The position numbers and the translations under genes are program-made. Positions 7,129-63,347 of a stretch of DNA of 64,000 bases are shown piece by piece (the stretch's first letter is position 1; the number at the start of each line of letters is the position of its first letter). The stretch lies in assembly GCA_964106645.2 (NCBI GenBank), contig OZ067039.1; one strand, given 5' to 3'. The notes beneath the pieces were generated by a model, which saw only the letters and a program-made list of their open reading frames with translations, was not told where the DNA came from and searched no databases. Source of the DNA: Podarcis pityusensis. Its lineage: Eukaryota.

Positions 7129-9133
7129 TTGGTTGCAACTCATGACAAAAAGGTATTTCTAAATATATTTGGCAAGTGGAAAAATCAAAATAAAACATAA
7201 AATATTTATGGATGCAAAAGAAAGAGGAGATTTTCCCCTGCCAGATATGAGACCATAGTATGAGGCATCCTGTCTTTGTTGGTTAAAGGAATGGATGACT
7301 TTAGAGAATTCACATATTCTAGACTTAGAAGATCACGACAATATTTTTGGTTGGCACGCTTATTTATGGTATGAAAAGGTGAAAGTTCATAAAAGATTTA
7401 CAAATCATATAATTAGGAAAAAATTGTAGAGTATGGGATAAATCCAAGAATTTATTAAAAACACCACTTTGGTTCTCATCACTGAAAGCTATAGTGGTAA
7501 AGAAAAAGAATATGATAGAAGGGAGGGGAACTTACAGAAATTTATTAAAACAAGAGGGAAGAGAGTATAAATTAAAAGAATTAAAAGAATTATAAGGAAA
7601 GTTACCAGCATGGATACACTATCATCATTTGAATGAAGTATTTAAGAAAGATAGGATACGAGGGTTTTGGGAACAAATATCACAATTGGAGAGAGACCTG
7701 ATGGAATGGAATGTAAAAGTGCTGTCTAAAATATTATTGGAATGGGAGACAAAGGATGAGCAAGTAAAATCCTCAATGATACATTGGGAATAGATATTGG
7801 TCATAATATAGGCATGGAAGCATGGGAACGATTGTGGAATATGGATATAAAATTTACAGCATGTTATGGTCTAAGAGAAAAATATATGAAAATGATATAT
7901 CAATGGTATCTAACACTGAGTAAATTGGCAAAAATGTATAAATCTAAATCAAATGTATAAATCTAAAATCTATAGCACAGAATGAACTCAGGCTTGCTAG
8001 AGAGGTTAAAAGCAACAGTTCAAGAAGGACACTGACAAACTGGAACATGTCCAGAGGAGGGCAACCAAAATGGTCAAAGGCCTGGAAACGATGCCTTATG
8101 AGGAACGGCTAAGGGAGCTGGGCATGTTTAGCCTGGAGAAGAGGAGGTTAAGGGGTGATATGATAGCCATGTTCAAATATATAAAAGGATGTCACATAGA
8201 GGAGGGAGAAAGGTTGTTTTCTGCTGCTCCAGAGAAGCGGACACGGAGCAATAGATCCAAACTACAAGAAAGAAGATTCCACCTAAACATTAGGAAGAAC
8301 TTCCTGACAGTAAGAGCTGTTCGACAGTGGAATTTGCTGCCAAGGAGTGTGGTGGAGTCTCCTTCTTTGGGGGTCTTTAAGCAGAGGCTTGACAACCATA
8401 TGTCAGGAGTGCTCTGATGGTGTTTCCTGCTTGGCAGGGGGTTGGACTCGATGACCCTTGTGGTCTCTTCCCACTCTATGATTCTATGAAATAAGTGTTG
8501 GAAATGTAAAGAGAAAGAAGGTTCTTTTTATCATATGTGGTGGTCTTGCAGTAAGGTTAAAGCTTACTAGAAAATGATATATAATGATATGAAAGGGATG
8601 TTTAAAATAATGTTTGTAAAAAAAACCCCAGAAGCTTTCCTTTTGGGAATTATAGGGACAGAACTACCTAAACTGTATAGAAACTTATTTACGTATGCAA
8701 CTACAGCGGCAAGAATGTTTCTCACCCAAAAATGGAAAGAAGCAGAAGTCCTAGCAAAGGAAGAATGGATACAAAAACTTATGGAATATGCAGAAATGGC
8801 GAAACTTACCAGAGGAGTAAGAAATCAAGATAAACTTTTTATAAAAGAATGGAAATGGTTTATTGAATATTTATAGATAAATTCTAAACACATAAGAACA
8901 TTGGCAGGATTATTGTAATAGCATGCAGTTTTACAGGAGTATATATTTAAAGCAGATGAATAAATGAGCAAATTAAGTTAATTTGGATATGCAGAAGATA
9001 TTAAAGTAAATTTTAGGAACTGCAGAAAGAGGGGGAAGGATGTCAAGTTTTGAAATGTTAAAATGATTGTAAAATTAGTGAAATTATAAATCTGAAAAGT
9101 ATCATTTTTAATGATGATGATGATGATGATGAT
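7129..9133 (+). mobile_element. L1/Tx1-type LINE 3' portion, degenerate, with 15-bp TSD
   Basis: ORF2 C-terminus (KCWKCKEKEGSFYHMWWSC...TTAARMFLTQKWK), (ATG)n tail, TSD GACACAATGACCAGG at 7114-7128 and 9134-9148. Confidence 0.88.
7974..8488 (+). mobile_element. CR1 3' fragment nested in the L1
   Basis: Near-identical to 57470-57950; ATTCTATG tail. Confidence 0.93.
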
Positions 9134-10720: not shown

Positions 10721-12326
10721 AGTTGCCAAAAATATACAGGAAGAGGAAAGACAAATGTCAAAGATGTAAAATGACTTGTCCTCCTAAGGCAAACCATTGG
10801 TCCATCTATCCCAGTATTACTGACTGATAGCTGCTGTCCAAAGTTTTAGCAAGTGGTACTGGGACCTGAAGCTAGGATTTTCAGTGTGCAAAGCCTGATT
10901 TCTGTTGCAGAGGTATAGCTATTCTCCAGTGCTTAGAAGCAAAAGCAGTGGATTCATGAATTTGCAATAAATTTAAGCAGGATGGGGGGGGGCTCTTTAG
11001 AGGGATGGAATGGAATAACAAGCTGCTCATGGAACAAACAAGATGCTTTACCTCTCAAAGGGAGATTGCAAATATATATGTCAGCGCAATTGCAATGCAT
11101 GGAGCTGTACACTAATCAGTGTTAGACTTATAATTTGCCTAACACTTATTGTGGGTTACATTACGTTTTCACACGTCTTCAAAACAAGCCTTCAAAGGAA
11201 AGCATCAGAATTTGTAGTTTTAGGGATGACCATAACAGCAGCTTCCCCAAAGTCCCCCAGTAAAGGTCATGAGTTGGGATATGAATCTAAATTCCCACAG
11301 AATGAATTCCAGAGCTTTCTAATGGGTCACTAGCTCTGGCTTAGATAAACAGTCCTAAACTCATCCGCTTCCCATGGATGAATTAATCTCAAATTCCAAA
11401 TTATCAAGTCTATGTGGAGAACTATTAATACAAATCAGAACCACCTGTTCTACACTTGTATCACATATGTAAAAAGTCACACCTTTTGTCCAGGAATGAT
11501 ACATTTCCTTCTGTTCTCATAGATTCTCATTCAGATTTAATTGCACATTCTTTCCACTCACCCACAAGCACTGAAAAACATGCAGAAACTCACTCATCTA
11601 TCATTGTTAATCACCTTGACTGTGCATTAATGCCCAAGCAGACAACCAAAATACACAGTGTGAGCATTCTCTCACCTCCAGGTAGTTTGACTATCTGTAC
11701 TACCTTACCACATATTAGATGTAGGTGCATGGTTAGAATCTGTGGTTCAAACAGCCACCAGTTCCCACCCCTAAATGGTGCGCACTGAACTGAAAATGTG
11801 CCGAGGGAGGTAAATAATATGTACAAAGTGATTTTAATTATGTACCTTGTAGACTGGAAGACAGCTCAAGCATAATCTTGGGGTAATGCTCAAACTGATT
11901 AATTACACTTTCCTGAACTCTTAACCCTATTTCGTACCGATAATTAACATGAATAAAGACTTTAATCACACCTGGCTTACACAAACTTACTTTTGCACGT
12001 GGAATTGAGGGTTCTAGATGGGAACAAATTTGTGAGTTCAGATTCAGACCTGTAGGCCGTAACTTAAGGAAAAGAACATACAATTTCAGTTTGCACCACC
12101 CTTTTAGTCAGAAGGAAATGCCTTTTAAAAAAACAAAAAAGCAGTATTTGGCAAATGACTCCCAGCCCCTCTTACCGTGCTAAAGGGTAGCCTTTTGACC
12201 ACCTCCCGCTTGCTCCTTGTTGACAACAGAAGCCAACAAAAGTTTCTTGAGTGTTCAGTGTTCCTCGAACATTCTTCCACAGCGGTAGGACCTTTCAGCA
12301 CCAGAGGCCGGGGACAGCTCCCTCAC

Positions 12327-13000
12327 CTCCGCTATAGGAAAAGAGCCTCTGTCTTTAGTCCCGGGTTGCCTTCGAGCCTTTCCCGGTCTCTCTTTTCTCC
12401 CACCCACTGGCGCAGGCTGGCGCTAGAAAACACAAAATAACAGGCTCTCCTCTGGGTCACGGCTGTCGACCCTATGCCTCTCTGTTCGCTGGGTTTTCAG
12501 CGCGGTCTCGGCACTTAGAAGGGGTTCAGGAACTTTCCTCTGCTGCTTCCTCTTCCAGAACCACAAGTTCTCCGGGCAGCTCCTCCTCTTGCTTCTGGAG
12601 AACTCCTCGGGATCCCGACACTTTTGAAAAGCTTTCTGGTGTTGGCGATTTCCGCTTGACTGGAACCTCCGGGAGCTCCTCCCACTTGGGGTAGAGAAAA
12701 GAGAGTGCAAAGCAGCAAGGACGCCTGCACTGGACGTCTGCAAGGAAAGTTTTCTAGTCTGCTTCCTTTCCCTCCCTTTAGTTTCTGGAACCCCAGCCAG
12801 CGCTGAATTTCTGAAATAAAAGGTTTAGCATCCCACCTCCCAGAAAACTACAGAGCTTGACATCAAAGCACCCGCTTTCCCATCTCTGCCATCTCAGATG
12901 CAGGGCAGAAGTAGCTGTGGCTTCTTGGGGCATGTGTGCGCATGAAGAGAAAACCTGCACATGTTCCGAGGCCGTTATGTAGATATATTGCGGAGTTAAA
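12327..13000 (-). promoter_or_regulatory. NEUROD4: Probable NEUROD4 non-coding first exon and promoter
   Basis: CpG-richer, repeat-free segment ending in a donor GGAG|gtgagg (exon end 12327), ~8.3 kb above the coding-exon acceptor; CAGATG E-box near 12895. NeuroD genes typically have a non-coding exon 1. The 5' boundary is approximate. Confidence 0.5.
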
Positions 13001-21300: not shown

Positions 21301-23560
21301 GGTGAGTCTCCGTGGCCCAGCGGGCTGAGCTGCCTGCTTAGCATCTGAATGAGCTTTAGAAAGCTAACATGATTTGATTTAAGGGTTTCAATAGCCCAAA
21401 CAATGTTCTCTCACGGGCAGGAAGTCCCATGGGCCTTAGGGGGGTTGACTTGCAAGAGGGTCTCCACACCCTCCTCTGTCTCCTCCCTCCCCTGCTTCTA
21501 AGACAGGGTCTGAGGGTCACACTCTTCACTAACTAGAAGGCAAAAGCCCACAGTGGTGCAGTTTTGATTTACTGTGTGGAACCGTAGTTGCTGTTACCAT
21601 TAATATTATTAAACAGATGGCAAAAGTCTAGAGTGTTTCAGGTATGACATTGTAGTATTAGTTACTATTATTGATATTAATATTATTTAATAGATGACAA
21701 AAGCTCAGAGTGTTGCAGATATGACATTGCAGAACTTATATATCATGTAATATCTTCCATCAATTTCTAATACATAAAAATGTCCATAAATTACAGGTAT
21801 TTGGGTGTGTATTGTTCTGGCACTGCTGTTGTATTCTTCTTGCTTTATCTGCAATGTAGAAGCAGAGAGGCAAATCTAACACTGATTAGGCACATGAGAA
21901 ACATTACATTAAAGGCAGGCACTGGTATCTTTCTACAGAGGACTAGACTCGGCTGATGGCCAAATGAATCTGTGTTTGGGACTGAGATGGCAAAGACTAT
22001 TTTAGATAGGAGCTGCCTAACTTATGGGAAGAGAACTCAGTTCAAGGCCAATCTTTGTTCTCTTGTCTACTTCTGATGATCCTCTGTCCAGACACAAATC
22101 ACCCTGGCCTTGGCTTATGCACAGGCTCAAGACCTTAGGTAACCCAGACCCCACCTAGCCTTGAGGCCAAGAGCTGTTTCTGTGCAGACAGCTGAAGTCT
22201 AACAGTTCCCATCTGCAAATGGTAGTGAAATGCATCCTGAGATCTGCCCCAGGGGGTTCTACAAGCTGGCATGGGTCTTACATAAAGGTACACTAGATGG
22301 AGCACAAAACCGTCATCTATGAGCAGTCAAGGCAAGGACAGAGTGAGGCATCCCCATGGGCTGAGTCTTCATACTAGTTGTTTTGAGACCTAGCAGAATT
22401 AAGTGCTTAAGTCAAAAATTTAAAAATGGACTGTGTACAAAAAATTACCATAGATCTCATATTTCTGAAACTTCATAAACTAAAAAACAAAAAACCCGAA
22501 TATGGCCATATGCAAAATGTTGATGTAGCTCATAGCATATTTTGAGATAGTCTGGAAGCACCCCAAACTATCTACCATATTTTTGGGTGGGATTCAATGA
22601 CATGCCAGCAAATCTGGATTGCACAATTATTCTTGATCTAGAGGTCTTGTGCAACAAACCTGCTTCCTCCAAAGATGGCCTTTTTGCAATAAGAAAAATG
22701 GTGGGGAAACAAACTGAAAAGTGTGTGATAACACTTGCTTTAACATAAGGTTATCAGCTCTCTCTGCAAACAAATCAGAATGAATGCTCATTTAACAGAT
22801 GGTCTGGAAGTGCCCTCACTTGCCTTTAAAATACACTTTAACCACCCCTGCAATCCCAGCCCCACTTACCTGGGAGTAAGTCCCACATAATTCAATAGGA
22901 CTTACTTCTGAGTAGACACCATAGCAACATGCTCTAAGATGCTGTTCACATAGCCCTTCACTATGACCCCCCCCCCCTTTCCACTCTTTTGCCGATAAGC
23001 AGGTTTAACTGTATTTGAGGCCAGGAACAGGAATTCACAAGCTCATTTAATGCTCATTTTGCAGCTTTAGTCAAAGACATACCTTCTCACAAATCAATGA
23101 GGCATACTCCCAGGTAAGTGAGTTCAGGACTTCAGCCTTAACCATCTCTTGCATGAAGCAAGCAAAATGTGGATCAGTTAAGTATGGGTATGGGTGTGAG
23201 CATGTGTGATATTAAAATAAATAAACAAATAATCAGCAGAATTGACCCGCTCATGAAAGTAGTGATGCATCTGAAATAAAAGCTCTAAAAATGAGTCAAC
23301 TTCATAAATGTTCATCCTTCCTAATAAGGGTGTCATGCCATAAGTTCAGCCTTTTCTCTCGGCTGCATGGTACTTCTGTTTTACTTCTAAGCAATCTGGC
23401 TTTTGCTGCCCTCTGCTGAAAAGAAGATGACACTCCTTCTTCTGAATGTTTCTCATTCAGCTCAGGCCAGATCTAGCAGATGATGTGGATTTCCTATCAA
23501 AAGTCGCAATTCCACAAATCTTCCTCCTCAGTCCATGCCTTCCACTAATATGTAATACTG

Positions 23561-23829
23561 CAGAGAAGCGGACACGGAGCAATGGATCCAAACTACAAGA
23601 AAGAAGATTCCACCTAAACATTAGGAAGAACTTCCTGACAGTAAGAGCTGTTTGACAGTGGAATTTGCTGCCAAGGAGTGTGGTGGAGTCTCCTTCTTTG
23701 GAGGTCTTTAAGCAGAGGCTTGACAACCATATGTCAGCAGTGCTCTGATGGTGTTTCCTGCTTGGCAGGGAGTTGGACTCGATGGCCCTTGTGGTCTCTT
23801 CCAACTCTATGATTCTATGATTCTATGAT
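23561..23829 (+). mobile_element. CR1 3' end, same young family
   Basis: Near-identical to the 3' end of the CR1 at 55597-57956. Confidence 0.93.
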
Positions 23830-25359
23830 CTAGCCATATTTCCTTCAAAGAGCTCAAGGTGGTCCCACTTTATGAATGTCTAGTATGCAAAAATTCACTC
23901 ACGCAATATAAGGAATTAGTACCCAAACTTCACTATACATGCTGCAGATTCAAATAGCCAAACAGAGAGCATTCCTTGCTTGCCTTTTGCTGGTTGGTTG
24001 AAGAGCAGAGGGAGGGAGGGGGGTGATGCAAAACCTGTGTGCACATGGGACTCTCACCCCCCATTTTATCCTCACAACAACCCTAGGAGGTGGGTTAGGC
24101 TGGAAGAGAGAAACAGCCCAAGGTTACCCAGGGAGCTTCAAGGATGAGTGGGACTTGATCCCCAGTCTCCTAGATCCTAGTCTGACACTCTAACCACTAC
24201 ACCAAACTGCCTCTGAGGGGGAGATATGGGAATTAACTGAATATGCCTGTTAGAATTGAAATACTGGAAATGCTGCTTTGGGTGCCAGTATCACATCTCC
24301 AGTATCATCTAGTGCCATCCTTAGTCTGCCTGTTTGAAGGGCTGCTTTGCCCATTAGACTCTCACTGCTTGAAAGCACATGCATTGTGCAAGAACACTTG
24401 CCAACCAATTGGGATTGCTTGCAGCACTTTGTCTAGTGTGTGCTCAGTGGCAAACTCAGTTGTCTCCATAATATGTGAAGCAACCCCAAGGTACACTACC
24501 TTCTCTCCTGCCTGCTTTGCCGGAATGATGTGGTCAGCTTCTTAGGTGAGGAGCTGGCTTTTCAAAGGTGATGTTCTGCATGTGGAAGCTCCTGACTCCC
24601 AGGGCAGTTTCCTATATCCACATGTCCCTACATTTTTGGAGGTTTTCATTCTTCAACTCCTAGACAAGAAATCATCACCGTCCTTGCTATTAGGAACTAA
24701 AGGTCACCTGTGGGGGCGGGAAACCAAGAGGTTTGGCTCAAAGACAGCTGGATGGAAGAGGAAGGAATGTTCTGCTCTGGATTACTCCTATGCCTACACA
24801 TGCAACAACCTCATCTCAACTGCAGACCCCAGTTGTTGAGCTGTGGGCATAGTTTAGCCACTATTTGGATGCTTGGCAGGAGCCTCTGGCATCTGCCTTG
24901 GCATTTCCCATGGGTTTGTGGCATGGCTGCCCTGGATGCCATCAGATACTATTTCTGTCTCTGGCACAGAGTGCAAAGGAGGCAGCCTCCCCTGCCGCCA
25001 ACCCCTTCCTTGTTCTTAGCTAGATTTCACATTTGCGGGGATAGCTTTTCAGATGTACAGTATGTGTGCATAGAGAGCACTACCAAAATACAAAAACCAA
25101 AGTGCATTTTTAACAGCATGTGATTATTTTCATTATGCCTTGTGACAACAACAACATTGTTCACAGGTAAAACTGTCTTTTTAAAAGAGATTTGTTTCTC
25201 TGACCTGTATATTGCTGGGTGCCCCCCCCCCCCAATCATTTGCAGGCATTGTGGAACTGATTTTCAGGGGCTTGTGAAAGTGGGGAAGTACAGTAGTGAA
25301 GTTGCTGGCAGCAAAAATGAAGCACTGACATGAGTGAGGGTAACTTCTTTGAGGTCCTT

Positions 25360-28049: not shown

Positions 28050-28394
28050 TATGTCCAAATTTGTTTTATTTCCCTCTTCCAAAAACATCATAAATTTCCA
28101 ATGCTTTCTCCTTTGAAGTGAACATGTAAAGTCTGACTTTAATTCCCTACCATTCAGGGCATGGATAGAATGAAATGTAGCATTGACATCCTCAAGCCAT
28201 TTTATGTCTATTGGGAAGAAATACAGGAATCACCTTACATTGTTATGCTTATTTGAAATTGGATAGTTCATACTTCCTCGTTTCTGATGGCGAAAAGGCC
28301 ACACTACTGATCTGCATTGATTAGCAGAGCTAGCTATGAATGAAAAGGAAATAATGGATTCGCCTGATACTTACTGAATGTAACTAGCCTCTAT
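28050..28394 (-). other. Gene A terminal exons: 20-nt exon 28394-28375 and 3' UTR exon 28283 to ~28050
   Basis: ttttaacacag / gtaagt micro-exon; 91-nt intron with a gctaat branch-like site and ccttttcgccatcag acceptor; AATAAA at 28070-28065. Confidence 0.55.
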
Positions 28395-28761
28395 CTGTGT
28401 TAAAACGGAAAGTGGAGCTTTTGTTAGCATTCCATGGTTAACACCCTGTGCCACTGCCTGTTCTTCCTTTAAAACAGTGGTACCACATGCACAAAACTGC
28501 TCACTGTAAACACAGCCCTGTCAAACCTACAGCGGTGCATTGTAGACCGACTTCATAAATTGAAGGCAAGTAGAGACGGGCTGAGACAATGCATGAAATG
28601 TCACCAGTTGTCATTAACCTCAACATTTTCAGGACTCTCCCCTTTGAGTATTTATGCCCTGGCAGCTATATCTACTTTAGATCCCCTGCCCTGCATCGCC
28701 TCTCTCCAACGCCCATCTCTTTTCATTTTCTCTTTACTCTCTTCTTAAACTCACCATTTTC

Positions 28762-28844
28762 TTACTTTCCCCAAAATGACAAAGTCCACTTGTTCTTCAT
28801 AGCACCAACTGATTCCAAACCTTTTGCAAAGATGTCAAACAAAG
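28762..28844 (-). CDS. Gene A helix exon: ALFDIFAKGLESVGAMKNKWTLSFWGK-stop
   Basis: Acceptor gcttttcttccag; only the phase-1 frame is open; alternative donors AA|gtaaga and ATG|gtgagt (exon end 28755). Confidence 0.75.
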
Positions 28845-28936
28845 CTGGAAGAAAAGCTTTCTGACGGCCATGGGTGGTCTCTGGATTGGGAGGAAAATGA
28901 GAGCTCGTGAGCCACACCTTCTCTGGTTTTTCTTTC

Positions 28937-30252: not shown

Positions 30253-30285
30253 CGTCACTGGCGGTGCTCGCTTCTGCAGAAATCG
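30253..30285 (-). CDS. Gene A exon 3c: TISAEASTASD (older paralogous copy)
   Basis: 33-nt phase-1 exon, cttcttatttacag / gtgagt; flanks are similar to those of 3a/3b. Confidence 0.75.
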
Positions 30286-30926: not shown

Positions 30927-31633
30927 TGTGAAGGAAAAGCTGAAGGTTTTTTACACACAAGATATTAGGCAATCCATGAATCATTGTTCTCTCCACAATT
31001 GTATTTAATTAAAGTAAAACATCATTTTGAGAACTATCTATATGATTTACCAATCTGTTCACTTAGGAAGGCATTTGTGGCTCTGAGTTTTCAGACAATG
31101 CCCTCAGAGTATTTAGATGGTTGCTGCAGGAAAATTCTAGTAGAAAAGAGACTTTCTCTACGTGGCACTCAAGCAACAGAAGACCTATACTGTTAAGTAC
31201 TTACTGTCCTATGTATTCTGAGCTGAAACCTAAGTACATTTGTGAACTATTGTGTAAGATGCCTGATGTGGACTATCAATTGAAGGTCACATATTTGCCG
31301 TCTGGCTCTGATAAGTTTGAGACAGACAACATGGCGAGATTCATTGTTGCATCCCCAAAACTAAGAATGTGCATTAAAGACAATATGGCAAACTATAAAA
31401 TCTGATCAATGATGTAATATAGAAATGTATTTGTGTAGGTCTGCATTTCAAAGTATAGATGTATAAATTGGTTACCACTGTATTTAACAGTGTATCTATG
31501 CATATTCTGCACAATATCCATAGAATACTTATATTCCCTTTTTGTTTAAAATAACCAGGATGGTTGCAACAACAAATAAACTTTGACTTCAACTTTGAGA
31601 TACTTTGAAATTGCTGGACCAAGAATAACTCAC

Positions 31634-31666
31634 TGTCACTGGTGGTGCTCACTCCTGCAGAATCTG
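31634..31666 (-). CDS. Gene A exon 3b: TDSAGVSTTSD (identical copy of 3a)
   Basis: 33-nt phase-1 exon, same splice sites as 3a. Confidence 0.72.
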
Positions 31667-31802
31667 CTGTGGATAAGAGGACATGGCAGTATGAAACAGA
31701 ATTCCTCCAATACACAGAATAATACACAGTTCAATATTTGAATTTTTCCTGCAAAAAGTATTCTTTAATTTCCTCCCAACCTCCATTAAATGGCCAGTGT
31801 CA

Positions 31803-33194
31803 AAGAAAAATGGAATCCAAAATTGATTTTCAAAGATGAGGAGGGAAGATACATAGCAGTAGAAATTACAGCACAAGGGGGAAAATACTTGTTATTGGGA
31901 ATTTATGCACCTAATGATGGCAAGGCAGAATTCTTTAAGAATTTGGAAACAAGGCTTATGGATCATTTGGATTACAAATTAATTCCAATGGGAGATTTGA
32001 ATGGAGTTGCATCTACTTTAATGGATAGGAGACAGAGACAAAAAATACTGAATGCCGGCAGATTACCTAAGATTTTTTATATATATAACTGACAAATTTG
32101 ATCTGTCAGACATATGGAGAGTCAGAAATCTAACTGAAATCTAACTGAAAAAGACTTCACATTTTTTCAGATACAAATCAATCATTTTTGAGAATCGACT
32201 ATTTATAGATATCCAGAGAAATTTCTCACCTTCTCACCCCTTGCCTTTTCCTGTAAGACCTATTACAGTCGTTAAGAGTCGTCAGCAGGCTCATCTCAGC
32301 TATCTGCCAATCTCCCATTCCCACCACCCTTCTGAGTAATACCCCTCCCCATATAGAAGGATCTGGCAACTTCTGTTTCAGTGTATCTGAAGAAGTGTGC
32401 TTGCACACGAAAGCTCATACAAAGAACTAACTTAGTTGGTCTTAAAGGTGCTACTGGAAGGATTTTTTTTATTTTGACTATGGCAGACCAACACGGCTAC
32501 CTATCTGTAACTGTGTCCCAAGGTGAAAGACTTCTGGGGAAAGATTCATAATGAATTGAAAAAAATGTTGAAATATTCATTTATTAAGAAACCAGAAGCC
32601 TTTATACTTGGAATAATAGGTTTGGAATTGCCCAAGAAAGATGTCAGATTATTTTTGTATGCCACAACTGCAGCTAGAATTTTGTTGGCCAAAAATTGGA
32701 AACTACAAGAAGTACCAACAGTGGAGGAATGGCAGATGAAGATGATGGACTTTTGGGAGCTAGCTGACCTGACAGGAAGAGTCCGCGACCAGAAGGATGA
32801 GGAATACCAAGAGGAATGGAAGAAATTAAAAGATTATTTAGCTAAATATGTTAAGAAAATTTAAATAGAATGACTTGCGAGTATCAGGTAGGCCTAGGAT
32901 TTAAATATGTGATGTTCTAGAATACTATGTTAAAAGTTAAAAAGAAAAGAAAGAAAGATGTAAATTGGTTAAGTAAATTTTATGTGAAATTAGTTTAGGA
33001 AAACTGCTACAATGATTTATATGGAAACTCAGCCGGGGGGATTTGAGGAAGTCACCTAACAATGTTTACAAAAGTGGAACTATTACAGTTAGGGTATATG
33101 TTTGTTTGTTTGTTTGATGGTTTCTTTTTATGTTTGTTGATAAGTTTGTTATAAATGTGGAAAACTAATTTAAAAAATTGAAGGGGGGAAAAAA
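31803..33194 (+). mobile_element. L1/Tx1-type LINE, internally deleted (endonuclease piece + ORF2 C-terminus + 3' UTR/A tail)
   Basis: DEEGRY...IYAPN...MGDLN endonuclease motifs; CPKVKDFW...TTAARILLAKNWK C-terminus; Penelope piece at the junction. Confidence 0.85.
32225..32512 (+). mobile_element. Penelope-like element terminus
   Basis: TCTGAAGAAGTGTGC..GCACACGAAAGCTCATAC...TTAGTTGGTCTTAAAGGTGCTACTGGA terminal motif. Confidence 0.75.
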
Positions 33195-33274
33195 CAGGAT
33201 GGTTGCAACAACAAATAAACTTTGACTTCGACTTTGAGATACTTCCTGAAATTGCTGGACCAAGAATAACTCAC

Positions 33275-33307
33275 TGTCACTGGTGGTGCTCACTCCTGCA
33301 GAATCTG
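33275..33307 (-). CDS. Gene A exon 3a: ADSAGVSTTSD
   Basis: 33-nt phase-1 exon, ctcttatccacag / gtgagt. Confidence 0.75.
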
Positions 33308-33606
33308 CTGTGGATAAGAGGACATGGCAGTATGAAACAGAATTCCTCCAAAACACAGAACAATACACAGTTCAATATTTGAATCTATCCTGCAAAAAGT
33401 ATTCTTTAATTTCCTCCCAACCTCCATTAAATGGCCAGTGTCATACACTAGAGAGTGCCATCTGTCTGGAAAATTCTACATGTGCAGGATTTTTATTACA
33501 TATTATGTGGATGGACTAGATCTATCACAGTCACCATGAGCTGCACTTTCCAGTCACTGATCTGTGCTTTAAAGCTCTGTGTTGAAGTGGTTTGGGTTTT
33601 TTTATC

Positions 33607-34794: not shown

Positions 34795-34836
34795 CAGTGC
34801 TGGGAGTCAACTCAGTGCTGGGAGGAGGTGATGTCT
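34795..34836 (-). CDS. Gene A exon 2: ETSPPPSTELTPST (mucin-like)
   Basis: 42-nt symmetric phase-1 exon, ttctgtcctcattctag / gtaagt. Confidence 0.78.
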
Positions 34837-35476: not shown

Positions 35477-37159
35477 GACTTCCGGGTTGGCGCCATCGCC
35501 GAATGGCGGACTCCCTCTGAGCTCCGGAGGGAGCCTGCTCGGCAGGGGCTGGGTCCTACCGCACCGGCGATGCGGGGACCCTTAAAAACCACGGCCACGG
35601 AGGCCGTGGACATGGAGACTCGGCTGGCACCGCTAGCGCCCTCCCGACTCGTGAAGGAGCCTTTTTAAAGGCTACGGATCGGGTGCCGGGGAGAAGCGTG
35701 GTGCTTTGAGTCCTCTGCTATCCCTGCCGAGCGCAGCCGCATGCCATCCGGCGGAGAGCGCTGACTTCTTCCATTGAAAATTCGGACTTCTTAACAACAA
35801 CCCGTGAGTAATTTGGAAACCGGGTTTAAAAGGAGAAAAAAAAAAGAATTTTTTTTTCGGATTGGACACGAGCGGGGGGGGATCCAAAAAGGAAGTCAGT
35901 CCCCTCCCCTATTGTAAACCTTCCAAAACAAGGACGGGGAAACCAAGGTCCAAAAAGATGTGTATTGCTGATTAAAACTAAGAATTCCACGATGGGGAAC
36001 TATAAGAACTGTGCTGGAGGAAGAATCGAGGGAGAAGAAACGTAACCCCCCCCCCCTGGGAACCGGGGTGATTGAAGAGAGAGCCTGGTGAAAAGAGTCG
36101 GAGATTTTGACAGCTGTCAAAGTAGCTGTCAAAGTCGGAAAGCAGAGAGGATTTTATTATGCGAACTTTCCTGGTTAAATTTGTTACAATTTGCTATAAC
36201 TCGTTAAAACTTGGATACAAAATGGCGAAATCATGGATAACAATCGGACTTTTGGACTAGAGAAAACAAAGTTACAACAATCCCCCTAGAGGAGTTTTGG
36301 GACATTACAAAGATGGTCGCAAGTGGAAAAATACCATTGGAATTTTACAGGACTGGTTATCTTCTGGGAAAGCTGCAAAACGGAAATAATATTTTGTCTA
36401 CAGGGTGTTTAGCTAAAGGAGACAATAGAATTTTCTATTGAAGAAAGGAAGGGACTGAACGCAAGTTTTCGTTCCTGAATAATAATAATCCCTGTAGAGT
36501 TACTAAGCTTCTGAATTAGAACGTTTCAGCAGCGGAACAAGAGGAAACTGGACTACAACTTGGAAAGAACAATGGGGGGAGTTTTATTAAAGATTTGAAG
36601 TTAAATGTTTTAAAAAATAATTATAAAAAGAAAAAGCTAGCAAGGAATTGGGGGAAATAGGTGATTTATGGACTTTAAGAATTCCAGGCAGATAATATGG
36701 TTTGGTGGTCAGGGGGAAATTAAACCGGGGACAGGGGGGGGGAGAACTAAAATCCAAAGGCTTGTCAACTTTTTCTTCTGAATGAGCTTTTTTTTCATCT
36801 ATTATACTTTTTATTTCTTATTTTTTATATTTCTATTGTGTGGGGTGTCTTTATCATTAAAAAAAAGGGAAATTGTGGAATGAAAATGGGGTGGGCCCTG
36901 GGGAGAGAATTTTTGTCTTTTATTAAGGGTATTGATGAGGAGTGTATAAATTTTAAATTCGAATAATGGTCTAAACAAATTAAGTTTCAAATTAGAACTG
37001 AGAGCTTGTGGAGCCAACAATATGAAAGGGGAATACGGTAGGGGTGGGGGAAGGGGGGAGTCCCGGAAAGTGGATGTATGAAAATAAGGCTTTGAATGTA
37101 CTTTAATCTTTACTTTCCGTATTTTTGAAAATCTTAATAAATATCATTTAAAAAAAAGA
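35477..37159 (+). mobile_element. Non-autonomous L1-type retroposon (1.7 kb) with 19-bp TSD
   Basis: Starts GACTTCCGG with a CpG-rich head, ends AATAAA..A-tail; TSD GAGAATTACATACCTCCAG at 35458-35476 and 37160-37178; no long ORF. Confidence 0.8.
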
Positions 37160-37172
37160 GAGAATTACATAC

Positions 37173-37221
37173 CTCCAGACACTAGAGCGCAAACCAGCAG
37201 GAGTCCCCATATCATCTTCAT
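37173..37221 (-). CDS. Gene A exon 1: signal peptide MKMIWGLLLVCALVSG
   Basis: ACCATGA start context (in-frame upstream ATG at 37227), hydrophobic core, small residues at -3/-1, phase-1 donor GAG|gtatgt; CATAAG box at 37313-37308. Confidence 0.8.
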
Positions 37222-37850
37222 GGTCATGAATGACTTGGGAGGTTTTCAGGAATTCAGGGCAGCCTAAAGAAGCCGAGGAATGTTGTGGTCTGATCCACTC
37301 TCACTGGCTTATGAAGGAAGGAAACGCCAATGAAAATGGTTGGGTAGTGGGGAGTGGAATCGTGGAGGAAATCAGGATCCTGGTGATGAAACAATTGGAC
37401 ATATAAATTGGACAGATAACAATTGGATAAATATGCAAACAGAAGAATTAAGATGGCACACAGCACTTGTGGCACATGAGAATAGACACAATGTTAATTG
37501 GTCTTCTAGATAAAGGGAGAGGCAAGGAAATTAATTGCTGTACCAAGGCTTTCTAATCTGTTTACTCAGAAAAGGGATTTTGGCTTTCTTCTTTCTGCCT
37601 CTGGCAAATCCTGGCTGAGGCGTGGACGGTGGTATCTTCTCCTGATGCACCTCACTTTAGGCTTCTCAAAGGGTGTGAAAGCAAATGTATGGCTTCTAGA
37701 CAACGTGGCACAAATGTGGTTTGATGTTTGTGGAGAATTCAGGCTCCTTGAAAATATCGTATTTCACTTAAAGGAAAAATATGTCTAACTCCAATACCTG
37801 CAAATAGATGTTTGAAAATGTAAAAAAGAAAAAGGAAAAAAGGAAAAAAA

Positions 37851-45985: not shown

Positions 45986-46680
45986 CTACCTCAACTCTGT
46001 CAAGATGTCCATACCGTTCTCCCCTCTGGTGGGTGAGTCCCTTTCTGCTGACCACTCCCCAAGGGATTCTTCACTGCTTTCCTCTGGAGATGAAACCACT
46101 TCTAGAGAATGGTGTCCATAACAGTACAGTTCTTGATGGCCAAGGTGGTCTGGCCCCTCCATGCTTTCTCCGCAGTGAGAAAGCCACGGTTCCAACTTTG
46201 AATGAGATGTAGCTTGAGGGCAGTAGTGGGAAGAAATCACAGGAGTCAGCTCCACTATGGTAGACTCTGAAGAGTCACTTCCCATTCTGCCATGATGAAA
46301 GGGGACTTCAGGGAGCGCTGTGTGAGTCTCATCCTTCACGCCTTCCACATCAAAGTGGAACTTGTCTCTGCGGGCTTTTTCCATCACTTCCCACACTACC
46401 TGTTCCAGACGACTCATAGAAGATGGCACAGCAGAAGGTCCTTGAGGCCCTCCTCGGGCGGAAGTGTACAAGCACATCGTGGAAATGGCTTTTTGCAAAC
46501 GCTTGAGAGGAGGCAGAGACTCTGGCTGGGAAGGAACATTCCAAGAATCTGGGATGTCTGGGAAAGCCCAGAACAAGTGGGCAGGGGAAATCTTTTGGAT
46601 GGGAGTCTTAGACACATAAGAGTAGAGGCAGAAGAAAGCATCAGCCGTTACAGCCAGAGTCTGGACTTGCTTGAACCGAC
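45986..46680 (-). CDS. TESPA1: TESPA1 coding exon 8 (SRFKQVQTLAVTADAFFCLYSYVSKTP...), to TAG
   Basis: Acceptor ctttcacag; conserved RFKQVQTLAVTADAFFCLYSYVSKTP. Summed CDS is 1362 nt = 453 aa + stop. A weak donor (AG|gtagca, 45990) overlaps the stop, so a further exon cannot be excluded. Confidence 0.88.
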
Positions 46681-47076
46681 CTGTGAAAGGAAGGATAGAA
46701 AGTGTCAGAGGAAAACCAAGAGACCCTAGCTTCCAGCTCTTCCAGGTCACATCTGTATGGCAGGGACTGTACACACACCTGAAAACTAGGCCTGGTTTCA
46801 TTTTCCTGGGTTCTAGTTTTTTTTTTCTGTCTTCCTCTTGCCTAAGCAAAGGCTTTTGTTTGGTCCTGTCTTCTGCTCCTGGTCCCAGTTCTACCTGCTT
46901 TCCTATGTTCCATCAAGAACAGAGGTCCTTTCCCATCACCTGCTACCTGAGCTCTTTTCAGATTTCAACCAAAGATGCCAAGGGTTGAACATGGGAGCTT
47001 CTCTACATGCTCTGAGCCTCACCCTTTGATATCACAGTCCCAGAACTGACAGCCATGAAATGCTTGTGGCACTTAC

Positions 47077-47285
47077 TTGCTAACATCAAGCAAGGATCCT
47101 CCATCTCTAACCGTTGCACCTGGGCTCTGAGGAAGAGCTGGAAATCAATGCCCTCAGCTTGGGAGGGAACGGAGAAGAACCGAGATGGGATCCAAGATGC
47201 AGCCTGTGTCTCCTCTTGTATGAAGCCCAGGTTGCACAAGATGCTCTCAGCATCAGCTTCATAGAGATCCAGCACCTCAGAGATG
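47077..47285 (-). CDS. TESPA1: TESPA1 coding exon 7, KRAP/IP3R-binding domain
   Basis: SISEVLDLYEADAESILCNLGF...IPSRFF...PSQAEGIDFQLFLRAQVQRLEMEDPCLMLA; cctag / gtaagt. Confidence 0.95.
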
Positions 47286-47757
47286 CTAGGCAGAGAAGAT
47301 AAGAGTGTGAATGCAGAAGTATCCCAACTGATTACTGAACCATTTTCAGGTCATAGCCCCACAAATACACCACTAGGTATGTCCGCAAGCCCCTTTCCTT
47401 CAGAGAATAACGGGCAGCATCTGTGGGATTTCCTCACCCCCAATTTATCTTCCTCACAGCCTTGTGTGGTGAAAGAGGGTGCTTGCAATAATATTCATGG
47501 TGGTGTCTGGTAGAGAAAGCAAACACAGAGCCCTCTGTATGTTGTTGGACCATAATTCCCATCAGCCCCAGCCTGCTCAACTAACCGTCAGGGATGGCGG
47601 GAGCTGTGGTCCATGACATCCAGAGGGCACCAGGTCAGCTGCCTCCAATGTACAGACCAGAGGCTAGGTATCTCTGCTCCAATCACTGCTGGTTTGTTAG
47701 TGGTGTAGGTAGATCTTTAAGCCAGTCCAAGTCCTACACAATACAATCCATGCTTAC

Positions 47758-47856
47758 CTGGAGCTGGTCTTGTTAGTGCTGCCTGAGAAGGCACTGGAAG
47801 TCATGCTGTGATCCAGATTGAGATGTTGGGAAGGCCAGAATGTATGTTTTTGGGAC
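47758..47856 (-). CDS. TESPA1: TESPA1 coding exon 6 (SQKHTFWPSQHLNLDHSMTSSAFSGSTNKTSS)
   Basis: 99 nt, NAGNAG acceptor cacagcag, donor gtaagc; TNKTSSS motif. Confidence 0.9.
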
Positions 47857-48168
47857 CTGCTGTGGAAGAAGAGACAGTGAAGAGACACATCTGCATGCAT
47901 ACCCACATCCCTTTTGGTGTGCATGTAGGAAGACAAAAAGGGAGGGCAAGCTGGCAGTCACAGCCAGCTGCACACTTGCACAAGACTGATAGTGTGACAA
48001 CACCCTACAATGTTATTAGACAAATATGCAGCCAGTATCTCATTTCAGAAATAAAACTAGAAATCTCAGCCCCGCCCTGCCCCCCCAAAACAAATTTAAA
48101 TTCTGGATTTCAGATTTCTCCAAACTTTGGCTCTAGCAACGCTAACCTCCTTAACTCTTGTTTCTCAC

Positions 48169-48205
48169 CTAGGCTCAGCTCTGTCTCTGTCCAGTAGCAC
48201 CATTG
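48169..48205 (-). CDS. TESPA1: TESPA1 coding exon 5 (AMVLLDRDRAEP)
   Basis: 37 nt, ttcttctttccag / gtgaga; phase 1 to 2 keeps the frame. Confidence 0.82.
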
Positions 48206-48383
48206 CTGGAAAGAAGAAAAGAAAGGTCTCTCATGAGCAAAGGATACATTGCATTCCTACGAAGAGAGCTGACGGCCAAGGAGCATATTGGCAGAGTTGC
48301 ACCATCAAATTAGCATTTTGCCACCCATCCATGGGCCATCTGGAAAGAAGGCTTGCTCACACCCAACAATCCTCATCACTTAC

Positions 48384-48437
48384 CTTCTGCTCCCAGGCTA
48401 AGGTCATCTTCAAAGCTGGTTCTGTTGCTGCAGGATC
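48384..48437 (-). CDS. TESPA1: TESPA1 coding exon 4 (GSCSNRTSFEDDLSLGAE)
   Basis: 54 nt, cctgtag / gtaagt; SFEDDLxLGAE motif. Confidence 0.92.
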
Positions 48438-48967
48438 CTACAGGATAACACAAATACATAGTCACTCAGAGCAAGCATCCACAGGTGGAAAAGGGACTGG
48501 GTGAGACCAAAAGGCTGAGTGGCTTTCTCTATGCAGTTTTATTATGGACATGCCACAACACAGCTCTACATGGGCAGGGCTGTGTGAAGGCTACAGTTCC
48601 ACAGAAGAACAGGAAATCCAAACAGTGTAGAATTCAGCTTCCTAAAATGCTCAGATTTTTCTTTCTTTCTAATCCCTGTGAAAATAGGCTTGTAAGTTTG
48701 CAAGCAATGCCTGCTGAAATCTCAGAAACCTAATGAGTTTCTGAATAAGATTTCCAGCGAAGGGGGGAGCAGTTTAATGCCTTGTATACCCCCTTGCTTT
48801 CCCCCTCAAATTAGTATGTATTATTGTTTAATTAACTTATGAATCACTTTACAAAAGCATTGTAAGGCGAATTACAAGCAAACAATAAAAATAACTAAAG
48901 TAGGTTTTGAAACAATACCAGAAACAACAGCGGCTGCCTTTCAATATTTTTTAGAGAAAACATTGAT

Positions 48968-50020
48968 GACTTCCGGTGCTTTCTGCCTTAATGGGTTCAG
49001 CTCCCACATTAGCGGAGATCATTTGCAGAGAAAAACAAAGATGATTTTGAGGGTAATTGTCCTTGCAAGTTCCCCCCAGGGCTCGGGGGGACTGAACTTC
49101 ACCCGCAGACCGTTTTGGCTCTCGCTCCGGCATGGAATCTGGGAGGCAGGAAGATGCTGGGTGCCAAAGCACTTTGCCTATCGGTAACTCCCCGACACAG
49201 CCATTAAGATGCAGAGGCTCTTCTATTTAATAGGGTGAAATTGACTCTAATTTACAGACGTGTGCAGGATGGATGGGACAAGATTATAAACTGGCAAGTG
49301 AATCAGCTACTGAGTCGCAATGTTTAGAACTGGTAAGATTTCCTTTGTAGAAAAATATGGTATGTGAGGGGGGGAGCCTTTTATATATACCATGTTTGCT
49401 ACATAAATAATTCGGCAAACCTCCCCCTAAATGCCAACAAACTGATAAAAAGCAAGAGGAGAAAAAGAGAGTGGGGTTATATTTATGCATTAATATGAAA
49501 ATATAACTGTGTGAGAACATTGAAATGATTTAAAGCACTGGACTTCCACTTATCACAATTTGGACTATGGGCCGAAATTACATGGGAAAAGAGGAAGAGA
49601 AAGAGCAAAAAAGTGTAAGTAGAGATGCTGCGTACAACATGATCAGAAGAGGAAAAATGAAGAAACAAATGGAAAAATAAACTTCTCACACAGGGAATTT
49701 ACGGGATATAGAACTCCTTCTGCAGAAATAAAATTTATTAAATGTGTTAATACGAATGGAAGTCCAGAACTCTGTAGTTGTTGATAACAGACTACGATCA
49801 GGACTGAATGTAATTGGATTAATCAAGATTTCGGAAGCAGGAAGAAATAATAACTTTGCACTTTGAAACCCAGCACACGGGAAGTCACACAAATTGTATA
49901 ATTGGCCTTATAATTTATATATATTTGGATATGAATTGTAATTTGACATTGATAAAATGTGGCTGCTATTGGACTTTAGTAATTGAAAATTAATTGATTT
50001 ATTTTTTTTTTGAAAAATAG
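48968..50020 (+). mobile_element. Second GACTTCCGG-headed non-autonomous retroposon (older)
   Basis: Same 5' motif and CpG head; imperfect TSD AAAACATTGAT / AAAACATGGAT. Confidence 0.6.
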
Positions 50021-50708
50021 AAAAAACATGGATTGGTTGATTGATTGATTATATTTCTATGTTGCTTTTCATTCAAATGAATCCCAATACAGCTTACAAA
50101 CAATAAAAAAAAGAACATCACAAATACAGCATAAATTATATAGAATAATTAACAAATCATCAATAAAAACAAGTACAACCTATAAAACACTCTTAAAGCA
50201 TCAACTAAAAAATGAGCTAAACATCACAATTAAAGCAAAAGTAATATTATATGATTAACAAACCAATACAGCATTTATAATCTATAAAATAATATCAACA
50301 GCATTAACAAAATAGCAACCCAAAAATAAGCTAAGAACTGTTAAGGTCATACACACATTCTCCACACCCCTAGGGCTCATAATCTTTCACTCTGTTCAGC
50401 TCAATAACATACACATGACGCCCTTCTAAAGGTTCATGAATGAGGCTGTGTACATAACCATACATTAAAGTACATTTGAAGCACACACACCCAAGAACCC
50501 TGGGAACTATATTTTACCTATCAGAGAGCTACAATTCCCAGCACCCTTTAATAAACTACATTTCCTGGGACTTTTTGTTTGGGTGTGCACACGCTCAAAA
50601 TGTGCTTTAAATGTATGGTGTGTGTGTGCAGTCCAAACTTTAGCCTACCTTACTTCATGTTTGAGAAGGCAGACCGAGCAAATAACAGAAATTGCAGAAA
50701 TCACTTAC

Positions 50709-50761
50709 CAGCATAGGCACCCGGAGCAGAGATGCTCTCTGAGAAGGGGTCCAGTGAAGAG
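50709..50761 (-). CDS. TESPA1: TESPA1 coding exon 3 (SSSLDPFSESISAPGAYA)
   Basis: 53 nt, ctttcag / gtaagt; phase 2 to 1 links exons 2 and 4 in frame. Confidence 0.8.
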
Positions 50762-51054
50762 CTGAAAGCCAGAATCAAGAGCTGCATCATTACAGCTATA
50801 GGAGTTCCTAAACCCTTTTGCCATTTCTCTCCTAGGACCTAGCCGGAACATCACAGACAATTAAGTCCCACTCAGCAAACAGTGGCACCACCAGGGCTGG
50901 TGCTGCATTAGGCAGAGCAAGGCAGCTGCCTCAGGCAGCAGATGCAAAGCTGCAGGGGACAGATAGAGCTCTGAGTGCCGCATGGCTACCCCGGGACCCC
51001 TACACTAGCCTCCTGTCCTCTAGTGCAGTGGAGGATACCGCCCATTCACTAGTA

Positions 51055-51349
51055 CAGTGGTGCCTCACAAGACGAAATTAATCCGTTCCGCAAGTCTCTT
51101 CGTCTTGCGGTTTTTTCGTCTTGCGAAGCATGGCTATTAGCGGCTTAGCGGCTTAGCGGCTATTAACGGCTTAGCGGCTTAGCGGCTTTAAGAAAAAGGA
51201 AACAAACTCGCAAGAACTCGCAAGACGTTTCGTCTTGCGAAGCAAGCCCATAGGGAAATTCGTCTTGTGGAACGACTCAAAAAACGGAAAACTCTTTCGT
51301 CTAGCGAGTTTTTCGTCTTGCGAGGCATTCGTCTTGCGGGGCACCACTG
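51055..51349. mobile_element. Tc1/mariner (Tigger/pogo-like) MITE
   Basis: TIRs CAGTGGTGCCTCACAAGACGAA / TTCGTCTTGCGGGGCACCACTG, TA TSDs, internal GCGGCTTA repeats. Confidence 0.9.
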
Positions 51350-51556
51350 TATTGAAGGAAAATCCTAGTCCAATTGGCTTCCGTATGTTCCTTGGGAGAG
51401 AGCAACATCTTGTCCTTCACCTCAGGCAGCAAAATGTCTTGAACTGGCCCTGATTGCCTTAAGTGCTAACCTCCAGTTTGCAGATCTGAAGCCCTACAGT
51501 CCAGGAAATCCACAAATGACAATGCCAGTACTGTGTGTGGAGTGAAACTCTACACC

Positions 51557-51692
51557 AGGTGTGAGGAACCTTTAGTCTTCCAGATATTGCTGAACTACAA
51601 CTCCCATCAGGCCCAGTAAACATGGCCAATGGCCAGGGATGGTGGGAGTTGTAGTTCAGCAACATCTGAAGGGCCAAAGGTTCCCCTTACCT
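51557..51692. mobile_element. Short hAT MITE (representative; related copies near 1965, 4305, 14820, 29960, 35215, 38965, 47530, 51880, 54325)
   Basis: GGAACCTT..CCAGATATTGCTGAACTACAACTCCCATC...GGGAGTTGTAGTTCAGCAACATCTG..AGGTTCC palindrome. Confidence 0.8.
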
Positions 51693-52122
51693 GCTCCAGA
51701 CAGTCACTCTATCCTGAGTTCAAAAGTTCTAAAAACCTGGGTGGGACCAAGGAAGAGCCCCCCTTTGGAAGCCACACTTCCATAATGCAACAGTTACTGA
51801 AATGAAAAAGGAACGTTAGAAATCAAGGCAGAAGCTCTTGCATTATCCCCAGTAAAACTAGTGCAATGAACTGAGTGTGATTAGGAATCTATAGTTCTCC
51901 AGATGTTGCTGTACCACAACTCCCATCATCTTTGACCATTAGCTATGCTGGCTGGGGCTGATGGGAGTTTGAGCCCAAGAACCACATGTTCTTTATCCCT
52001 GTTGCAAAATATGTGCATATCTAAAAATGCTCCTGATTCTTGAAATCAAAATATAACTTCTGACAATGTCATGATCCTTTCGGGTAGTGACCTCCTCCAT
52101 GACCTCTCTCAGGTAGACTCAC

Positions 52123-52165
52123 CTGCATTCCTGCAGCCAGCTCTCAATCTTATTGGATGAGCTCC
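52123..52165 (-). CDS. TESPA1: TESPA1 coding exon 2 (GSSSNKIESWLQEC)
   Basis: 43 nt, ttccaacag / gtgagt, matches the NKIEDWLQDC motif, frame-consistent. Confidence 0.9.
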
Positions 52166-53164
52166 CTGTTGGAAACAAAGAAAAAGTGCTAGGGCTCCTC
52201 ACAGACTGGATAAGTTACTGTGATGATCCACATCTCTGCTGGGGCCAAATGCAGCCATCTAAGGCTTGTTAGCCAGCCTCTCAGCAAACCACGTGGGCAG
52301 GATGCCTGATGTCGCCACTACATAGGCAGTAGCAAAAGAAGAGGAGAATGAGGAAGAGGAAGAACACCTGAAAGTGAGTAATGGAATGAATGTGGTTTAA
52401 ACATATGAATAATTAAATGAACTCATTATTTGGTAGTCATTATGGCCCTGTGAGCCCTTATTGCTGCTGAACAGCTGCATAACAGTGGAGGGTGCAATTT
52501 GCATAGAAGCAGGAGGAAGAATGCTTAACCCTTCCCTTCCCTGCAGCTTTCCCTCCAGCTATCTGATTGCTTTTCCTTAAAAAAAAAGTGTATATATACA
52601 CACATCAAATATACAATAAAAAAGAAAAAACATATATACATACATTAAAAAGGAAAAAGAAAAAGACCTCCAAAACAAACATTTTCTAATACACTTCTAC
52701 GTAAGGAGTACAAGCCGCCTCTGACTGCTTTTCCACATGGTTGCCTGCTGTGCTGGACTTCTTTTCTCCATGCTCAAGGAATAAGAGCTCACCATTCTAA
52801 AATTAAGTTAGAACAACCCTGTGTTAGCTGTTGGCATAAAAAATGACATGTATGGGAGGGGGGGATTTGCAAAAGAGAAGCAGTACTGGGAAGAGAGACA
52901 TGACCCTTTCCCTGACCACTGCTTTCCCTCACAATCCAACTGGTGCTTTTTACTCCATCAGAGATTCTAATAAGTTTTTACTGAAAAGCAGCAGGGAGGA
53001 GAGGTTGTGAAGGAAAAGAAATGAGTGTGGAAGGATTAAAACCCCTCCCCACCAGGGGAGAAAAAGCAAGTGGGAAGAAGATGCTGAACCTTTCCCCCCA
53101 TCCAGCCCTGCTTGTCTCCTGAAATGCTCTCCCCATGTTGCTTTTGACTTTCAGGCTCTGAGCC

Positions 53165-53605
53165 AGCCCATCTTGCCCATAGAGGCTAGTGGCACCGGGG
53201 CGTCAAGTTCTGGAGGGCGCCAGGCAAGAGTCCAGGGAACACCGAATGAGCGCGCTAAGTGAGCGAGGGCGCATGTGCCGCTCCCGCCGAGCGTCAGCTC
53301 AGTTTCCCCCCTTTTCCCCTGCAGACACCGAATTCTGCGGGGTGCCAGAAGGCTAAAAGGGAAAAAACCGAGCCAACACTCGGCGGAAGCGATGCATGTG
53401 CCCTCACTCGCTTGGCGCAGGCCCGCTCACTTGGTGTGCTGCCTGCCGTGGCCACCACAGCAAGAAGCGGCCAGCTGAGCCGGGAGGCGCCTGCCCTCCA
53501 GCTGCTGCCCGCCTCCTCCAGTCCTAAAAAAAGGTTGACAACTCTGGGAAAGGGGGGGCACCAGAGGGATCTTTGCACCACAGCGCCGGATATTAAGACG
53601 GCCCT
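53165..53605. mobile_element. GC-rich hAT-like non-autonomous element
   Basis: CpG-rich block ending ...TAAGACGGCCCT; 5' TIR degenerate. Confidence 0.5.
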
Positions 53606-55312: not shown

Positions 55313-55487
55313 NNNNNNNNNNNNNNNNNNNNNNNNNNNNNNNNNNNNNNNNNNNNNNNNNNNNNNNNNNNNNNNNNNNNNNNNNNNNNNNNNNNNNNNN
55401 NNNNNNNNNNNNNNNNNNNNNNNNNNNNNNNNNNNNNNNNNNNNNNNNNNNNNNNNNNNNNNNNNNNNNNNNNNNNNNNNNNNNNNN
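55313..55487. other. Assembly gap (175 N)
   Basis: Run of N. Confidence 1.
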
Positions 55488-55596
55488 GAAGCTTCCAGTT
55501 TATCAGAGGGAGAAAGCATTCCCCAAGGGGGGAGGGAGAGCAGTGAATCTAATAGAAGAGAGCAACAGGAACAACAGGGAGGGACCGGCTGTTCAC

Positions 55597-63161: not shown

Positions 63162-63270
63162 TAGTTAAGAACTGTTTATAAGATTATTTTGTTAATACAC
63201 AATAAAAAGTTATAAAAGAACAAGAAGCGTTTGTGTGGTGATCTGAAGAGGACAACGACCAGTCCTGACA

Positions 63271-63304
63271 GATAGATAGATGATAGATAGATAGATAGAT
63301 AGAT

Positions 63305-63347
<43 letters not shown>

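Follow-up and report, generated by a model that had tools for sequence, protein, structure and literature searches.

The 64,000-nucleotide stretch of Podarcis pityusensis DNA analysed here (the window) carries on its minus strand, in this order, TESPA1, a predicted gene that we call gene A, and a NeuroD-family gene. A 230-residue exon frame of TESPA1 is 99% identical to TESPA1 of Podarcis lilfordi, the next match being at 68%. The NeuroD-family gene matches the Pfam family Neuro_bHLH with an E value of 5e-48, and by its sequence and synteny it is putatively NEUROD4. Gene A lies 3' of TESPA1, with 8,759 nt between the TESPA1 stop codon and the gene A ATG. An assignment of gene A to the 3' part of TESPA1 was ruled out because Podarcis TESPA1 ends at 45986, and in a comparison of the 5-45 kb region with 120 TESPA1 proteins the gene A exons gave no match (best E values 0.11 to 0.98, scattered). 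The features referred to below are:

45986 to 63876, minus strand: TESPA1, the upstream neighbour, on the strand of gene A; exons mapped, KRAP_IP3R_bind domain
37173 to 37227, minus strand: gene A exon 1, coding part; 18-residue predicted signal peptide, phase-1 donor
35477 to 37159: LINE-like retro-insertion in gene A intron 1, with a 19-nt target-site duplication (37178-37160 and 35476-35458)
34795 to 34836, minus strand: gene A exon 2; 42 nt, phase 1-1, Ser/Thr/Pro-rich; acceptor score 9.5, donor score 10.7
33275 to 33307, minus strand: gene A exon 3a; 33 nt, phase 1-1, Ser/Thr/Asp-rich
31634 to 31666, minus strand: gene A exon 3b; identical to 3a, within a 255-nt direct repeat (96.5% identical)
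30253 to 30285, minus strand: gene A exon 3c; an older copy
28755 to 28880, minus strand: gene A helix exon as modelled; 126 nt, phase 1-1, its 3' part being the 90-nt exon of the first-pass annotation
28762 to 28764, minus strand: in-frame TAA after Trp-Gly-Lys, 7 nt before the exon end
28375 to 28394, minus strand: candidate 20-nt exon; acceptor score 8.6, donor score 5.9
28065 to 28207, minus strand: candidate last exon, from the acceptor at 28207 to an AATAAA at 28070-28065; 3' UTR in this genome
2979 to 3974, minus strand: NeuroD-family bHLH gene, the downstream neighbour

Exon chain and predicted product of gene A

The gene A model encodes a 104-residue precursor, about 86 residues of which follow the predicted signal peptide, and the mature part is without cysteine. 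In exon 1 further ATGs occur at 37221 and 37215. As judged without a dedicated signal-peptide predictor, neither strand of the window has another first exon that looks like one for a signal peptide; in a chance control, 20 Markov-simulated windows contained two such donors under criteria that were set post hoc. When candidate exons were called by fixed rules between 5 and 45 kb, 7 of 25 on the two strands were symmetric and open, and on the minus strand the four (of 17) that were symmetric and open in phase 1 were exactly exons 2 and 3a-c. Ser and Thr make up 40-53% of each of these exons. The 51-residue spacer of the precursor holds 25 Ser/Thr, nine Asp/Glu and no Lys/Arg, which bears out the acidic Ser/Thr spacer that the first-pass annotation had placed upstream of the helix, and the tail has a charge of +4 in the 104-residue model. 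The AG/GT ends, the phase and the 104-codon open frame are intact across all six coding exons. Splice scores were taken from a simple home-made position weight matrix, a crude measure that gave 8.1-17.6 for the eight TESPA1 and NEUROD acceptors used in calibration. A TATAAA at 38393 was set aside as a promoter candidate, since it resembles by eye the tail of a repeat. The protein database that we word-searched includes Podarcis TESPA1 and many squamate proteins and does not contain gene A, which thus appears to be unannotated rather than out of scope. Taken together, gene A is probably a real, unannotated secreted-protein gene in Podarcis.

The introns of gene A have been repeatedly entered by mobile elements. 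The target-site duplication of the retro-insertion in intron 1 copies the exon 1 donor, with the first copy intact and a second at 35471, both scoring 9.1. The 255-nt direct repeat (31550-31802 and 33189-33443) takes in exons 3a and 3b together with flanking LINE-like fragments, and reflects either recent duplication of the exon or an error of the assembly. Exon 3c, identical to 3a at 26 of 33 positions, is no better conserved than its flanks (45 of 60 and 36 of 40), and six of its seven changes alter the residue in an alignment read by eye; no purifying selection is therefore seen in this comparison. Elsewhere in the window, intron 1 of TESPA1 contains a near-complete Ty3/gypsy chromodomain LTR retrotransposon (57957-63272, plus strand), with gag, protease, RT, RNase H, integrase and chromo domains over three frames and 296-nt LTRs that are 99% identical, and its insertion is probably recent. 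It adjoins an RT-bearing LINE fragment (RVT_1; 55846-57958, plus strand), the 3' end of which recurs at about 8015-8489 and 23558-23833 with 97-98% identity. A 175-nt run of N, an assembly gap at 55313-55487, is flanked by a 112-nt piece resembling the end of the LTR element. Finally, a purine-rich stretch seen by eye at about 12176-12500 on the minus strand, with a good donor at its end, is possibly a non-coding first exon of the NeuroD gene.

The helix exon and its Gly-Lys end

The stretch under study is most likely the last coding exon of gene A. It had been described as a 90-nt minus-strand exon (28844-28755) bounded by AG and GT and in phase 1 at both ends; these properties and the translation, with the TAA at 28764-28762, were confirmed, but the start probably lies elsewhere. 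An acceptor at 28880, 36 nt upstream of 28844, scores 10.0 and has two branch-point-like sites, whereas the acceptor at 28844 scores 4.4, is without a branch-point-like site and has AGs at -18 and -14. Because the former outscores the latter, the helix exon probably begins at 28880 and is 126 nt long, adding 12 residues that would include an Arg-Gln-Lys a few residues ahead of the helix.

On a helical wheel of 100 degrees per residue, the eight hydrophobic residues named in the first-pass annotation do fall together, at 40-200 degrees, while L22 (300 degrees) and W25 (240 degrees) are off that face. The hydrophobic-moment calculation that it had proposed was run here and showed a modest amphipathicity limited to the first half of the peptide, the sliding moment declining from 0.65 there to 0.16-0.26 in the last windows. 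The best 18-mer moment (0.50) was matched by 385 of 5,000 shuffles, so that the amphipathicity is not significant against shuffled sequences, and by 39 of 1,502 ORF tails drawn from the window, a set that includes the query's own tail; the best 11-mer moment (0.65) was attained by 690 of the 5,000 shuffles. The side-chain charge of the 27-mer is +2, as first stated, and would be +1 if the terminal Lys were removed as the amidation hypothesis has it. AlphaFold2, run on the single sequence and without a control peptide, placed a helix over residues 9-37 of a 38-mer with a mean pLDDT of 74. The helix is real, though ordinary taken alone, and the helix exon has no paralogue within the window.

The Trp-Gly-Lys-stop at the end of a predicted secreted precursor has the X-Gly-(Lys/Arg)n form of PAM-amidated peptides. 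Among the 1,502 ORF tails, seven end in Gly-Lys, 16 in Gly-Lys/Arg, and five combine a moment at the level of the query with Gly plus zero to two basic residues. Trimming of Gly-Lys to a Trp-amide, as suggested by this ending, may occur, and we give it somewhat less than even weight. The 104-residue model contains no R-x-x-R, just as it contains none of the dibasic sites whose absence had already been pointed out.

It had further been argued that two donors yield the same C-terminus. Both donors are present, one within the exon, after 28766, and one at the exon end, 7 nt past the TAA, with a score of 9.8; splicing of the upstream donor to the 20-nt exon (28394-28375) gives Lys followed by TAG, as had been described. 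The two are not independent, since the T at 28764 belongs both to the TAA and to the upstream GT (28765-28764), and they therefore count as one observation. The identical ending also requires the 20-nt exon, since a junction with 28207 encodes another C-terminus. Entered from the upstream donor, the 20-nt exon stops immediately; read in phase 1 it stops three codons further on, and the ending would again be Gly-stop. Were the TAA absent, inclusion of the 20-nt exon would still terminate the protein no more than seven residues beyond this point. Lys followed by a stop after a phase-2 donor was found at only 4 of 151 strong acceptors, and this scarcity lends some weight to the two-donor argument. 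The TAA lies 7 nt from the last junction, or 27 nt if the 20-nt exon is included. A stop this near the last junction is in the usual zone of escape from nonsense-mediated decay, so the mRNA should by that rule escape decay.

The stop can be read in another way, already raised in the first-pass annotation: the TAA may be derived, either by a recent nonsense mutation or through an error of base calling. Originally the gene, lacritin-like, would have read on, ending either seven residues further, in the 20-nt exon, or in the last exon after a second helix. In that case Gly-Lys would be an accidental end, which fits the assignment to the lacritin family made below and does not fit amidation. In favour of a derived TAA are the symmetry of the 126-nt exon and the strong donor 7 nt beyond the stop, and the candidate last exon is open in phase 1 for 56 codons, the first 17 of them predicted helical. 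The lacritin C-terminus consists of two amphipathic helices (PMC7948570), and the terminal peptide of lacritin starts Lys..Glu-Asn where gene A has Lys-stop-Glu-Asn, a weak likeness. However, openness over 56 codons arises by chance at 20 of the 151 strong acceptors, the AATAAA falls inside the last-exon frame, and the moment of the last-exon helix was attained by 421 of 5,000 shuffles. Nor does the last-exon frame have a protein match: a word search gave three candidates, none at E 10, and no Pfam family was found. The top ESM Atlas matches of this frame (0.90, unnamed clusters) were discarded as within the chance range. A proposed correspondence of the exon end to the lacritin exon 4/5 junction was dropped as well, the two being apparently one codon out of register. 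We regard a derived TAA as unlikely, if still a serious contender.

Gene A and the cluster beside TESPA1

In human, the 3' side of TESPA1 is occupied by the genes of the lacritin/dermcidin/GLYCAM1 cluster, of which three share its strand, while NEUROD4 is found on the opposite side and is head-to-head with TESPA1. In the lizard one strand carries both TESPA1 and the NeuroD gene (2979-63876), and this difference from the human arrangement suggests a local inversion. Since gene A is 3' of TESPA1 and NEUROD4 lies on the other side in human, an inversion must in fact be assumed if the loci are to correspond; a single inversion of the TESPA1-plus-cluster block would convert the human order to that of the lizard.

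In koala, MM1 encodes 98-99 residues and neighbours a lacritin/dermcidin-like gene; its distance from TESPA1 is about 8 kb, and its side is given as 'upstream', whereas gene A is 3' of TESPA1. The orthologous human region contains DCD, LACRT, a GLYCAM1 pseudogene and MUCL1 (PMC5054531); MUCL1, DCD and lacritin have been placed at 12q13 (PMC3688712). Like these genes, gene A is adjacent to TESPA1; it is 8,759 nt from the TESPA1 stop and on the TESPA1 strand. Also like them, it predicts a small precursor for secretion, in which the signal peptide occupies a separate first exon and is followed by a Ser/Thr-rich N-terminal part and a C-terminal amphipathic helix, the last being predicted and of modest moment. 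The proposal of the first-pass annotation, that the precursor is secreted and combines an acidic spacer with a potential defence helix, is supported by the anatomy of gene A and, more strongly, by the position of the locus, which that annotation had not noticed.

Sequence searches, in which the queries were single exons of 26-56 residues each, did not place gene A. The helix exon had no match in a word search of 64-207-residue proteins, none at E 10 among PDB sequences (a library of chains of 20 residues or more) or Pfam families, none by phmmer among 1,835,955,588 protein representatives, and no usable match in the ESM Atlas. The likeness to frog aureins that had been remarked on at the start of the helix thus received no support from PDB sequences, Pfam or the 1.84 billion proteins, and is probably convergent; the libraries do not reach down to very short peptides. 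The helix-exon motif was absent from the open-access literature searched and from the femoral-gland supplements of PMC9000839 and PMC10465503 (944 characters for the latter), and no reptile member of the cluster was reported in the open-access literature searched. Marsupial and eutherian GLYCAM1 are only 19-23% identical and MM1 is described as without detectable homology (PMC5054531). Null searches are expected for a cluster whose members diverge this fast.

We favour, with moderate confidence, the reading that gene A is a diverged squamate member of the lacritin/dermcidin/GLYCAM1/MUCL1/MM1 cluster whose helix is freed by extracellular proteases. It is on position and anatomy, rather than on sequence, that gene A is best read as a squamate counterpart of the cluster.

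The version put forward in the first-pass annotation, in which gene A evolved independently of the mammalian cluster as a precursor of the frog type and its product is a Trp-amidated peptide with an antimicrobial or signalling role, draws on much of the same anatomy. A signal peptide, an acidic spacer and a cationic helix are followed by Gly-Lys-stop, Lys-then-stop after a phase-2 donor is as scarce as described above (4 of 151), and the 20-nt exon also gives Gly-stop in phase 1. In addition, squamate oral glands do amidate peptides. Nevertheless, the precursor has neither a dibasic nor an R-x-x-R site, one base is common to the donor and the stop, the charge after trimming is only +1, and the position of gene A at a locus of gland genes would become a coincidence, all of which makes this version quite improbable. 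It is equally hard to credit that gene A makes no peptide, being either a pseudogene in decay or transcribed without being translated: its absence from the annotated proteins of a well-annotated genus, the several transposon insertions in its introns and the exon 3 copies without a purifying signal would fit, but six coding exons keep their splice ends, phase and 104-codon frame, the signal exon is intact, and small, low-complexity, gland-restricted genes are often missed by annotation.

If gene A is a diverged cluster member, its product would be an approximately 86-residue glycoprotein secreted by an exocrine gland (skin, femoral, eye or oral), with an O-glycosylated spacer that would hold the tail in solution. 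Cleavage near the Arg-Gln-Lys or within the helix by extracellular proteases (such as cathepsin D, trypsin-like enzymes or carboxypeptidases) might then free an amphipathic peptide of about 28-31 residues, which by analogy with lacritin and dermcidin fragments could bind lipid films or microbial membranes. Proteolysis of the dermcidin/lacritin type would make the absence of a dibasic site expected, and conversion of Gly-Lys to a Trp-amide would be a possible extra step rather than a requirement. In the femoral-gland proteome of the sand lizard, searched against annotated proteins only, cathepsin D takes the first and third ranks and a carboxypeptidase rank 14 (PMC9000839), which by analogy makes the femoral gland a candidate site, and not a finding, for the processing of the gene A peptide. 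Because gene A is unannotated, it would be invisible to such database-dependent proteomics, and it is a candidate for one of the components of lacertid gland secretions that have escaped identification. A more far-reaching scenario, which we think rather improbable, has the cluster already present in the amniote ancestor and one lizard member with a frog-like Gly-Lys end giving rise to a Trp-amidated antimicrobial or chemical-signal peptide of skin or femoral-gland secretion.

Dermcidin has been listed as primate-specific (bioRxiv 10.1101/090860), and the locus and build of gene A hint that a cluster supposed to be confined to mammals is much older. If gene A is homologous to the cluster, genes for defence peptides of sweat, tears and milk would predate the synapsid-sauropsid split, gene A would provide an outgroup outside the mammals for tracing how dermcidin, lacritin and the milk protein GLYCAM1 originated, and the finding would bear on the idea that milk proteins derive from the defence secretions of skin glands.

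Comparison with known secreted precursors

Frog skin precursors (aurein, temporin, dermaseptin) consist of a signal peptide, an acidic spacer and an amphipathic helix with a Gly-based amidation signal, and gene A has a signal peptide, an acidic spacer, a helix and a Gly-Lys end. In contrast to these precursors, gene A has a mucin-like spacer spread over several exons, is without a database match and lacks a Lys-Arg site before the helix; in the 104-residue model no Lys-Arg convertase site of the kind that directly precedes the mature peptide in aurein-type precursors was found. The frog-precursor likeness is best read as convergence.

Gene A resembles GLYCAM1/PP3/VELP, MUCL1 and MM1 in its locus and in the small, mucin-like, secreted character of the proteins. 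No sequence similarity to these proteins was detected, GLYCAM1 is encoded by four exons and is 141-164 residues long, and the expression of GLYCAM1, MUCL1 and MM1 in milk or sweat is without a direct lizard equivalent. The likeness to dermcidin extends to the locus, a precursor of about 100 residues and a C-terminal helix, which in dermcidin is freed by extracellular proteases, its processing involving cathepsin D, an endopeptidase and carboxypeptidases (PMC7948570). It differs in that DCD-1L has 48 residues, is anionic and ends in a free carboxyl group (PMC13056121), and the gene A helix exon is without a Pfam or PDB match.

With lacritin gene A shares no detectable sequence similarity, and it differs further in its Gly-Lys end and in having three spacer exons of 33 nt each. 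It also ends after one helix, without a counterpart, unless the TAA is read through, of the terminal lacritin helix that is bactericidal once cleaved (PMC12147183). In lacritin, exon 1 carries the signal peptide, exons 2-3 encode about 65 residues (PMC7442861), and tear proteases cleave an amphipathic helix that spans residues 65-88 (PMC7948570). Gene A likewise has a TESPA1-side locus, a signal-peptide exon 1, acidic Ser/Thr-rich N-terminal exons and a predicted amphipathic helix from about residue 65-70; fragments of lacritin are freed by gland-fluid proteases, as those of gene A may be.
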